From assembly GCF_000223395.1 (NCBI RefSeq), contig NC_015931.1:390001-422000 (forward strand): a DNA stretch of 32,000 bases, written 5' to 3'. Origin of the DNA: Pyrolobus fumarii 1A. GTDB lineage: Archaea; Thermoproteota; Thermoprotei_A; Sulfolobales; Pyrodictiaceae. Positions 18,805 to 20,145 of this stretch are shown in pieces. Position numbers and translations under genes: made by a program. The notes below the pieces were generated by a model. It saw only the letters and a list, made by a program, of their open reading frames with translations, searched no databases and was not told the DNA's origin. Numbering within the stretch: position 1 is the first letter of the stretch; each line of letters starts with the position of its first letter.

Positions 18805-20145
18805 TTAATCTTCTCTCGCCTCTCTGCTCTGGCTACCATCCTCAACTTCCAACTCCAGCTCAGTTCCTGCAACTGGCATCTCTCCTAGACTCCGCTCTAA
18901 GCACTTGTTAACTGCGTGCGACCTCACCCTCATCGCTATGTTGGTAGCTAACCTCTCTACCTCCTCCGAGTGTAACACAAGGTAGACGGTCCCCTTTTGC
19001 TCGAACACTGCATCTAGAAGTTCCACCTTGATAGACGCCCATGTGGGTACCAGGAGGATCCAGCTGTGTTTCTCTCCACGACTGATCAGCTTGTCAATAG
19101 CCTCCTTGGCTTTGCTTTTCACTCTCTCCGCTAGGCGCTTAGCAGCCTCGAAGCACTCTTCGGGGTCGCCTCTCGATGTTACGCCAAGTCCAAGTATTTC
19201 CTTCCCGACAACCTCGCCTATGATATCGTCTAGCAGGCGTTGTGTTGATCTGCGCACCTTCCTCTCGGAGAGGAGCACCTCTAGGAGTGGCCTGGACTCT
19301 GCTTGGGAGTATGCGAGTACCGCGTAGGGAGTCCCCCAGCGCTCGAGCTGTTCCTGGACCATATTATCGCGGGATAACTGTACCAGCACGCCGCCAGTCT
19401 CCGATGCAACGCTCCAGATGAGGTCTAATGAGGGGTCAATCCTAGCTATCTCCTTGAGGCGGCTGGACTCTATCGAGGCAAACCCGGTGAGGCCATCCAT
19501 GTCGAGGAGTATTTCTACTCCGAGCTTGTCGCCGCGAGCGTAGATGCGATAGGCCCTTACACGGACACGTCGAAGCCTATCGGCAACTATGTACTCGTGG
19601 GGCTCGCACAGCGTCTCTAAACACACGCCCTCGTTGCCACGCGGGTAGGCCGTAAGTAGAGCCTTAGGGTAGAAGAGCTTCCTTAGCCCGTTGAACTCGG
19701 CTAGAACGTCGATGATTTTCTCCTTGGCGTCACGCGGCATCTTGTCTAGGAGCCTCTCGGCTAGGATGAGGGCCTCTACCTCGTCAGGCCTCACGGCATA
19801 CGGGAGCCTCTCCCAACCCTCTCTCGCTAGCACCGCGTCAACCTCCACCATGCCGTGACCAGCAGCCTGCAGGTGATGCACCAGCTCGTGGAGGAGATCG
19901 CCCAAGCCAGCCCCGCTGTACAGTATGACTCGGTGCTCATCGGGCAGGTACCTGCCGCGGATCACCGGGTCCCTATGCTCATCCTCGGCGTTCTCCACCT
20001 CCTCGCGGAGGGAGAGGGTAACCCCACGCAGAGGCTCAGCACCAAGCCCGGCGAGGACACTATTGACAGCCTCTAGTAGCCGCTCTTCAAGCCTCCTCAG
20101 CCTCTCGACAAGCACCCTCCCCGCCACAACACCCGGAGTCGGCAT
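18805..20145 (-). CDS. HExxH metallopeptidase-like protein (ImmA/IrrE, M78-like N-terminal domain) with about 300 aa of uncharacterised C-terminal sequence
   Basis: 446 aa. HELVH is encoded at 19876-19890; 32 residues later comes PDEVEALILAERLLDKMP (19735-19782). Together these fit the ImmA/IrrE pattern HExxH...ExEAxxxAxxLLxP. The rest has no motif I recognise. The ATG at 20145 overlaps the upstream phosphatase-like ORF by 49 nt. Confidence 0.65.
   Translation of the reverse strand: MPTPGVVAGRVLVERLRRLEERLLEAVNSVLAGLGAEPLRGVTLSLREEVENAEDEHRDPVIRGRYLPDEHRVILYSGAGLGDLLHELVHHLQAAGHGMVEVDAVLAREGWERLPYAVRPDEVEALILAERLLDKMPRDAKEKIIDVLAEFNGLRKLFYPKALLTAYPRGNEGVCLETLCEPHEYIVADRLRRVRVRAYRIYARGDKLGVEILLDMDGLTGFASIESSRLKEIARIDPSLDLIWSVASETGGVLVQLSRDNMVQEQLERWGTPYAVLAYSQAESRPLLEVLLSERKVRRSTQRLLDDIIGEVVGKEILGLGVTSRGDPEECFEAAKRLAERVKSKAKEAIDKLISRGEKHSWILLVPTWASIKVELLDAVFEQKGTVYLVLHSEEVERLATNIAMRVRSHAVNKCLERSLGEMPVAGTELELEVEDGSQSREARED

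Follow-up and report, generated by a model that had tools for sequence, protein, structure and literature searches.

The window analysed in this work, a stretch of 32,000 nucleotides (nt) from Pyrolobus fumarii 1A (contig NC_015931.1, positions 390,001 to 422,000), carries two modules of the CRISPR-Cas immune system, one of type I-A at 9555-16516 and one of type III-B at 21397-30958. Between them, where a preceding reading of the DNA alone (the sequence-only reading) had placed it, lies the gene under study, an open reading frame (ORF) on the minus strand that is 100% identical to the P. fumarii 1A hypothetical protein Pyrfu_0440. Its N-terminal domain is predicted to be a zincin-type metallopeptidase domain of a family of its own, whose genomic surroundings offer a suggestive but unproven link to CRISPR immunity. 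The target ORF comprises the following features, in window coordinates:

18805..20145, minus strand: complete target ORF (Pyrfu_0440), ATG start, 446 amino acids (aa) plus stop
19672..20145, minus strand: N-terminal zincin-like domain, residues 1-158, the only part common to all 10 clusters of relatives
19867..19890, minus strand: HELVHHLQ, residues 86-93, in which HELVH (residues 86-90) occupies nt 19876-19890
19771..19782, minus strand: E122-V-E124-A125 on the helix after the HExxH helix, 32 residues after H90
18808..19671, minus strand: C-terminal part of ~290 residues (159-446), with no significant fold match and a model of medium confidence

The public entry is annotated with 436 aa, since its start is set at a GTG ten codons downstream of the ATG at 20145 (20116-20145). 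Because residues 5-10 of the longer form (GVVAGR) are kept in the two closest relatives, P0002 and P0003, the ATG is the better candidate, and the longer form is probably the true one.

The target ORF was confirmed to be a genuine gene with its motifs at these positions. Its relatives are under purifying selection (ratio of nonsynonymous to synonymous substitution rates, dN/dS, of about 0.25-0.45 between Infirmifilum alleles), and the number of HExxH motifs that chance would produce in a protein so composed is only 0.027. The sequence-only reading had described HELVH followed 32 residues later by a second motif, and this was exact: PDEVEALILAERLLDKMP begins at residue 120, and 32 residues separate H90 from E122.

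Conserved residues and predicted fold of the N-terminal domain

An exhaustive phmmer search of 1.84 billion representative proteins returned 10 related clusters, all of them apparently archaeal. The only full-length homologue, P0002 from a metagenome contig, shares 37-39% identity with the target, and the remaining clusters match it only over the N-terminal ~140-150 residues. The named sources of these relatives are Infirmifilum uzonense and metagenome-assembled genomes assigned to 'Thermogladius sp.'. A word-indexed homologue search with the target protein matched nothing but the target itself, while the same search with the family profile recovered just two members. Scanning with the family profile gave no confirmed relative in the genome contig collection, in which the source genome appears to be masked, and two loci in metagenomes, one of which is a duplicate. 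No relative was found by the profile among the 2.9 million contigs of IMG/VR, nor by tblastn among 50,697 phage records or 72,556 plasmids. The Pyrfu_0440 family is thus very small and so far undescribed, occurring in hyperthermophilic archaea and related metagenomes. Nothing relevant emerged from literature searches for the locus tags and for type III accessory proteins of the metalloprotease type, and neither the target gene nor Pyrolobus is mentioned in previous surveys of accessory genes in archaea and type III systems.

Within the family, H86, H91, Q93, E122 and E124 are invariant, as is G64 in the preceding hairpin, whereas H90, H97, P115, R119 and A125, together with Y66 and Y76 of the hairpin, are nearly so. 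E87, which would be the catalytic Glu, is present in most relatives. A motif scan placed the Glu 29-35 residues after the second His across the family; for P0005 the homologous Glu lies ~37 residues after it, the scan value of 16 being an earlier chance match to the pattern. H97, positioned 11 residues past the first His, is replaced by Tyr in the L009 allele and by Ser in P0010. Since this His is not invariant while the downstream Glu pair is, a gluzincin-type third ligand is indicated instead, and the candidate for this role is E122.

By the published definition (PMC5512222), the core of a zincin is built from a helix at the N-terminus, a sheet of three strands, the HExxH helix and a further helix that carries a Glu. 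The AlphaFold model (AF2) of the target, calculated with a 13-sequence alignment, reached a predicted local distance difference test (pLDDT) of 81-97 over residues ~10-150; the prediction from the single sequence gave a pLDDT of 36. In the aligned model, helix 4-33 is followed by strands 41-45, 64-67 and 72-76 and by the HExxH helix (81-94), after which come helix 104-113, the Glu helix 120-135 carrying E122 and E124, and helix 138-158. This topology is predicted with high confidence to be that of the zincin core. The conserved HExxH...E set and the modelled topology are both in line with the metallopeptidase-like character proposed earlier for this region.

The target protein itself had no match in Pfam, NCBIfam, PADLOC or the sequences of the PDB. 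Among its relatives, the best sub-threshold Pfam matches were of the zincin type, namely SprT-like (E-value 1.6e-4; best score 20.3 bits in P0008, against a cut-off of 25.6) and DUF6647 (4.3e-5; 22.2 bits, against a cut-off of 24.1). These matches span the beta-hairpin (G-x-Y...I-x-L-Y) and the HExxH helix. Further weak Pfam matches were to DUF3920, M76, WLM (E 0.17, below threshold) and DUF6782. Similarly, six members matched PHROG 10499 weakly and four matched PHROG 87 'metallo-protease', with PHROG 4529 as an additional weak match. In the sequence-profile comparison with the PDB, the zincin region of the N4-type virion RNA polymerase came out best, accompanied by TTHA0227, all weakly; the phage-type zincin matches are non-significant (E 0.06-0.09). 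Foldseek with the full-length model returned nothing below 5e-3 from BFVD, the weak matches including LPD38 (prob 0.77) and a 'Metallopeptidase' (prob 0.41). All of these weak and recurrent matches point to zincins. Taken with the topology, we predict that the N-terminal domain is a zincin-type, gluzincin-like metallopeptidase domain that forms a family of its own and is probably about equally distant from the M78 (ImmA/IrrE) and the SprT-like zincins.

Comparison with M78 peptidases and other zincins

The sequence-only reading had assigned the target to the M78 peptidases (ImmA, IrrE/PprI, CapP; PF06114, COG2856) by the spacing and pattern of its motifs. To compare the two families, genuine PF06114 proteins were gathered with a consensus-like probe, 32 of them were aligned, and hhalign was run against the target family; this comparison was made with M78 only. 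The likeness is evident in the HExxH motif, in the Glu that follows ~32-33 residues later within E-x-E-A (32 residues in the target and 33, from H83 to E116, in the genuine M78 proteins) and in the combination of an N-terminal zincin with a larger C-terminal part. The two profiles align in register over 107 columns, the hairpin, the HExxH motif and the E-x-E-A element all being matched, but at a Prob of only 53.6% (P = 1.3e-4), while reversed-sequence controls gave Prob 0.1% and P 0.4. The claimed spacing to the invariant Glu was borne out and falls within the ~27-33 residues of M78.

The downstream part of the pattern, E-x-x-A-N-x-F-A-x-x-L-L-M-P in genuine M78 proteins, was not. Residues N120, F122, A123, L127, M128 and P129 are invariant in the M78 alignment, whereas the position of the invariant Asn is occupied by L, Y, E, I, R or F in the target family, the counterparts of F122 and LLMP are likewise variable, and only E-x-E-A is conserved. 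The 'MP' of the M78 LLMP occurs in the Pyrolobus protein alone, P0002 having 'LP'. In turn, the family's own invariant H91 and Q93 (HExxHHxQ) and its LPYxxRP block are absent from the M78 features. Even at E <= 10, PF06114 was reported neither for the full protein, nor for its 167-aa N-terminal domain, nor for the relatives, although SprT-like and DUF6647 match weakly. The target is not recognisable as an ImmA/IrrE protease, and its membership of M78 is not supported.

A true M78 protease would act as an anti-repressor, which upon activation by a signal such as cyclic oligoadenylate (cOA) or stress cleaves a helix-turn-helix (HTH) repressor, for instance Csa3, and thereby switches the CRISPR genes on. 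For this explanation speak the spacing and the in-register alignment with its clean controls, and there is a precedent in CapP/CapH, in which the M78 member CapP has a C-terminal sensor and regulates defence operons (bioRxiv 10.1101/2022.04.27.489752). Moreover, csa3 is present in the window at 9555-10271. It lies, however, 8.5 kb away past the I-A operon, and no Xre-type HTH repressor adjoins the target or is fused to it, the neighbours in the window being a DSP-like ORF and small ORFs; the adjacent partner repressor that the anti-repressor model calls for is thus missing. At the other loci no Xre-type repressor was seen either, and at one locus of the Infirmifilum lineage (L013) there is an unverified 86-aa ORF downstream that resembles a winged HTH (wHTH) protein. 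In addition, IrrE- or CapP-type structures are not among the 50 best Foldseek matches, and neither Pfam nor PADLOC revealed a cOA-binding domain. We consider this explanation improbable, and the M78, cOA-sensor and Csa3-substrate proposals are unsupported.

The SprT-like/WLM proteins (Wss1, SPRTN) and the minimal zincins of DUF6647 provide the best sub-threshold Pfam matches. They resemble the target family further in the near-invariant H97, which stands at +11 instead of the +10 of the HExxH-x5-H arrangement, but the likeness is partial, as the scores stay under the cut-offs, H97 is not invariant, the family has an invariant Glu pair, and no DNA-binding domain was recognised in the target.

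The zincin-like metallopeptidases of phage and plasmid polyvalent proteins, such as the region in the N4 virion RNA polymerase, share the core topology (PMC5512222), which for the target is that of the model. They also account for the best PDB sequence-profile match and for the BFVD and PHROG matches, all weak, and they too belong to a setting of virus-host conflict. In contrast, the target is a chromosomal, free-standing protein of 446 aa rather than part of a giant multidomain polypeptide, and it has no relatives in the viral, phage and plasmid collections searched.

The variable C-terminal part

The target's C-terminal part is common only to P0002, at 28% identity. BLAST and hhalign among the C-termini of five subgroups detected no similarity (hhalign Prob <1%), which shows, at the level of sequence, that the C-terminal parts differ completely between the subgroups of the family. 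An apparent hairpin common to the target, P0002 and P0010 ('VRxYxIYA...GVE') was not significant in hhalign and was dismissed.

The AF2 model of this part, with a pLDDT of 60-77, consists of two units (182-250 and 328-419), each a helix followed by a three-strand meander and a second helix. The late stretch that had been taken for beta-alpha-beta, SWILLVPTW... from residue 361, is modelled as a beta-meander instead (a beta-hairpin plus a strand). The earlier statement that some 300 residues contain no assignable motif holds, the searches of Pfam, NCBIfam, PADLOC and PDB sequences being empty. On the other hand, its proposal of a ligand sensor finds no backing here, as no CARF, SAVED, GAF or other sensor was detected in the C-terminal part by Pfam, NCBIfam, PADLOC or the best Foldseek matches. 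The absence of a GAF-like or other known sensor also sets the target apart from M78.

Foldseek gave a run of weak matches to dsRBD-type structures (RNase III, DCL3, R2D2, ADAR, protein Y), in agreement with the modelled helix / three-strand / helix units. The dsRBD reading was rejected because the E-values are at least 0.15, the template modelling scores are below 0.2 and the protein is acidic, with an isoelectric point of 5.4.

Genomic context and a possible role in defence

The complete genome of Infirmifilum uzonense has the homologue, MA03_02750, on the same strand as csx1, which encodes a CARF-HEPN protein, and, going by the annotation, 23 nt downstream of it. The order csx1 then zincin recurs on L003 and L009, further contigs of the Infirmifilum lineage. 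Further members of the Infirmifilum island are a CARF7 gene that is split, two repeats as a remnant of CRISPR, an AbiL/OLD-like fragment and a pair of genes for a wHTH-like protein and a P-loop ATPase. The features around the relatives are:

L013 16454-17314: CARF7 (Cas_APE2256) and two CRISPR-like repeats (GCCTCAATGTAAAGAGGATTGAAAG...), beside the csx1-zincin pair
L013 13833-16333 and L004 2922-5427: two-gene module near the zincin gene, with 27% identity between the two divergent lineages
L014 5759-6787: DSP+HD fusion gene directly after the family member (P0018/P0010)

The CARF7 gene of L013 is called as two adjacent ORFs, so a split by frameshift is possible. Within 10 kb of the csx1-zincin pair of L013 no cas10 was found, and the set therefore looks like orphan type III ancillary genes. 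The two-gene module encodes a protein of ~230 aa (wHTH-like) and a P-loop ATPase of ~600 aa with the Walker A motif GEYGSGKT; its sole family match is a weak one to PADLOC mad8. For P0005, this ATPase pair stands directly downstream of the zincin-family gene.

The three Infirmifilum loci allowed a comparison of alleles (L013 10001-11323, L003 1537-2426 and L009 5678-6178). Nucleotide identity in their flanks is 98-100%, and csx1 has a synonymous divergence (dS) of 0.01-0.04. Past about codon 45 of the zincin gene, by comparison, identity falls to 47-86% and dS rises to 0.5-1.2, with the dN/dS of 0.25-0.45 given above, so that divergence among the zincin alleles is 20-30 times that of the genes on either side. 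These alleles are old and functional and have been exchanged by recombination; they are not the product of local decay. Both metagenome contigs (L003 and L009) end inside the zincin gene, which is therefore either itself a hot spot of diversity or the border of a variable island.

Elsewhere in the family, P0002 is found near VWA and MNT-HEPN genes. P0010 and P0018 adjoin archaeosine TGT, and P0008 lies among housekeeping genes, together with HhH-GPD and DNA methylase genes. Neither defence genes nor cas genes were recognised as neighbours of P0008, P0009 or P0011. The only neighbours that recur across loci are csx1 (in one lineage), a DSP-like phosphatase gene (in two lineages of the eight, Pyrolobus and the unrelated P0018) and the wHTH-like and P-loop ATPase pair (in two). 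In two of the eight lineages with readable context, Pyrolobus (cmr) and Infirmifilum (csx1), the family member lies beside type III cas or CARF genes. If, by our own assumption, ~1-3% of genes lie beside cas or CARF genes, such a coincidence would be unlikely, of the order of 1 in 100, a figure that stands on a small sample. The context thus gives partial support to the CRISPR linkage proposed earlier for Pyrfu_0440, and we regard it as suggestive.

In the Pyrolobus window, the surroundings of the target were annotated with NCBIfam, Pfam and PADLOC as follows:

9555-16516: type I-A module, with csa3 (minus), cas11/csa5-like, cas7/csa2, cas5a, a 418-aa ORF, cas3' helicase and cas3'' HD
9555-10271, minus strand: csa3, beyond the I-A operon
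10366-10836, plus strand: small-subunit ORF at the cas11/csa5 position; matches a PADLOC Cas11 model labelled III-B (E 1.5e-99)
12764-14020, plus strand: 418-aa ORF at the cas8a position, without Pfam or PADLOC match
20097-20501, minus strand: DSP/PTP-like ORF with the C-x5-R loop CECGCGR; sub-threshold Pfam DSPc match (E 3.2e-5)
8794-9240, minus strand: DSP-like paralogue beside csa3, 49% identical over 100 aa to the product of 20097-20501
21200..21211, minus strand: T12 run, visible in the sequence itself, ~190 nt downstream of cmr1
21397..30958: type III-B module
21397-23334, minus strand: cmr1
23331-24473, minus strand: cmr6
24477-25160, minus strand: cmr5
25167-26267, minus strand: cmr4
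26398-29643, plus strand: cmr2/cas10
29645-30958, plus strand: cmr3

Cmr2/Cas10 retains both the HD motif (residue 25) and the GGDD cyclase motif (residue 783), so that synthesis of cOA is plausible. The DSP-like ORF is located directly upstream of the target and overlaps its start by 49 nt. The target is on the strand of cmr1 and yet apart from it, as ~900 nt without a supported ORF separate the DSP-like ORF from cmr1. The T12 run in this interval may end the cmr1-6-5-4 transcript, and the region 20502-21396 may contain both a terminator and a promoter, or else give rise to a non-coding transcript. The same region contains short ORFs only, with an AT-rich, TATA-like ATTGATAATAAAAG around 21017-21030. 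The G+C content is 0.50-0.53 in the cmr genes, 0.58 in the target and 0.60-0.63 in the I-A genes; the step at ~21000-21400 about coincides with the T12 run and suggests that the Cmr cassette was acquired separately.

Our preferred explanation, to which we assign an even chance, is that the target belongs to a new small zincin-like family that is possibly a defence-linked protease. In this mechanism H86, H90 and E122 would bind one Zn2+ ion and E87 would activate a water molecule as general base, making the target a gluzincin-type Zn-dependent endopeptidase, whose variable C-terminal part may select the substrate or the trigger. The family would act in virus-host conflict as a defence-island protease, in some lineages alongside type III ancillary genes. 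This role is suggested because the family is sporadically distributed, because it has defence-island neighbours (counting csx1, CARF7, the ATPase pair, toxin-antitoxin genes and Cmr) and because deeply divergent alleles stand beside a near-identical csx1. As no recognisable nucleotide sensor is present, any coupling to Cas10 signalling would be indirect, via Csx1 or a protein trigger, rather than through binding of cOA.

Several observations weigh against such a defence-linked protease, beginning with its fold. Against the PDB, Foldseek with the full-length model gave a best E-value of 0.15 and no peptidase among the 50 best matches, and no database model reaches its curated threshold for the family. 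The fold assignment therefore rests on the motif, the topology and the sub-threshold matches. As to catalysis, E87 is replaced in two lineages, P0004/P0020 and P0010/P0017, which read HLIIYH/HLIIHH and HILVH, so that catalysis is not universal in the family. These losses, while H91, Q93, E122 and E124 stay invariant in the aligned members, and the lack of a structural neighbour among active peptidases would fit a non-enzymatic scaffold, that is, a pseudo-protease that binds a partner without cleaving it. The Pyrolobus protein and most of its relatives nevertheless keep the full H-E-x-x-H...E set, and families of active enzymes commonly include a few paralogues that have lost the catalytic base. 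A scaffold is very unlikely in our view.

The remaining points against the defence-linked protease concern location. The ~900 nt interval and its T12 run stand between the target and cmr1, and at the G+C step bounding the III-B cassette the target falls on the high side, outside the low-G+C block. What the divergent Infirmifilum alleles mark could be the border of a variable island rather than the gene itself. Six of the eight lineages have no cas neighbours on their contigs of 3.8-26 kb and are surrounded by housekeeping or unannotated genes, which is the part of the CRISPR linkage that the context does not support.

The six lineages without cas neighbours and the position outside the low-G+C III-B block would also fit a zincin that is a coincidental neighbour, lying in variable regions where cas genes gather as well and having a role outside CRISPR and defence, such as SprT/Wss1-like removal of DNA-protein crosslinks or other regulatory proteolysis. 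The SprT-like and WLM matches, the housekeeping surroundings of P0008 and the archaeosine TGT beside P0010/P0018 point in the same direction. Conversely, 10 clusters in 1.84 billion proteins are far too sporadic for a housekeeping function, and the direct pairing with csx1 inside a defence island, the divergence of the alleles relative to their flanks and the unrelated C-terminal regions of the subgroups also argue against it. Overall, a coincidental neighbour appears rather unlikely.

The weak likeness of the family mostly to phage zincins (PHROGs 10499, 87 and 4529, the N4-like virion RNA polymerase and LPD38) raises another explanation, in which a viral or plasmid zincin is lodged beside the CRISPR genes as mobile-element cargo or as counter-defence, for example processing or destroying host defence proteins. 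Zincin-like metallopeptidases of polyvalent proteins have been proposed to process proteins or to attack the host (PMC5512222). The sporadic distribution, the divergent alleles and the toxin-antitoxin genes nearby would be compatible with mobility. The explanation is weakened by the lack of relatives in IMG/VR and in the phage and plasmid collections. Furthermore, the window revealed neither an integrase nor a tRNA nor a repeat boundary beside the target, the G+C content of the target is similar to that of its left flank, and the conserved flanks in Infirmifilum are ordinary chromosomal genes. We therefore judge mobile cargo to be quite improbable.

The known CRISPR-linked proteases are Lon-SAVED (CalpL), SAVED-CHAT and TPR-CHAT (Csx29/Craspase) (PMC11229360, PMC9704534). 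The target resembles these systems in that a protease-like protein is encoded beside type III cas or CARF genes, together with a Cas10 bearing a cyclase motif. It differs from them in that it is Zn metallopeptidase-like, while the known proteases are Ser-Lys Lon or Cys CHAT enzymes (PMC11229360, PMC9704534). Moreover, no SAVED, CARF or TPR module was found in the target, the association is seen in only two of the eight lineages, and its neighbourhood lacks a conserved gene for a candidate substrate.

In a more far-reaching version of the defence-linked protease, the immunity that hyperthermophilic archaea owe to type III CRISPR and defence islands would have a new metalloprotease arm, in which the zincin is co-expressed with Csx1. 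Here the hypervariable C-terminal domain would recognise a viral protein, or a state that depends on Csx1 or Cmr, instead of cOA, and the resulting proteolysis would reinforce or reset the response. We consider this version unlikely. If true, the type III ancillary functions would gain a new catalytic class, in the form of a zinc metalloprotease partnered with Csx1 or Cmr whose recognition domain diversifies fast. Such a protein would be the first CRISPR ancillary protein of the metallopeptidase class, evolving under diversifying pressure at the level of alleles; it might also bring a new trigger logic for type III ancillary proteins. Even without a functional link to CRISPR, the analysis describes a zincin family new to Pfam, NCBIfam and PADLOC, corrects an over-specific M78 assignment and draws attention to a possible hot spot of diversity next to the Infirmifilum csx1.

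Some minor observations were made on the rest of the window. Two DSP/PTP-like paralogues flank the I-A module and the target; the product of 20097-20501 is without the first ~33 residues of its paralogue and looks N-terminally truncated. The ORF at 10366-10836 also matches I-A Cas11a models, weakly, and the III-B label on this I-A small subunit probably stems from the way the models are labelled. A 301-aa ORF following the iron ABC transporter genes (7853-8758, plus strand) has no Pfam or PADLOC match, and an Rfam search of the whole window returned no match. Toxin-antitoxin-like genes occur around the cas modules at 17500-17962 (minus), 1647-2096 (minus) and 31773-32000 (plus), the set comprising a DUF2283 ORF that overlaps one of 77 aa, an ORF with a PIN domain and a short DUF104/VapB-like ORF at the end of the window, the last recognised by eye only. 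The ORFs listed at 371-781 and 1170-1607 are probably spurious, as they lie wholly or partly inside a CRISPR array at 47-1259, which contains 18 copies of the 25-nt repeat GAAACAACCAAGAATGAATTGAAAG with a period of about 62-82 nt.

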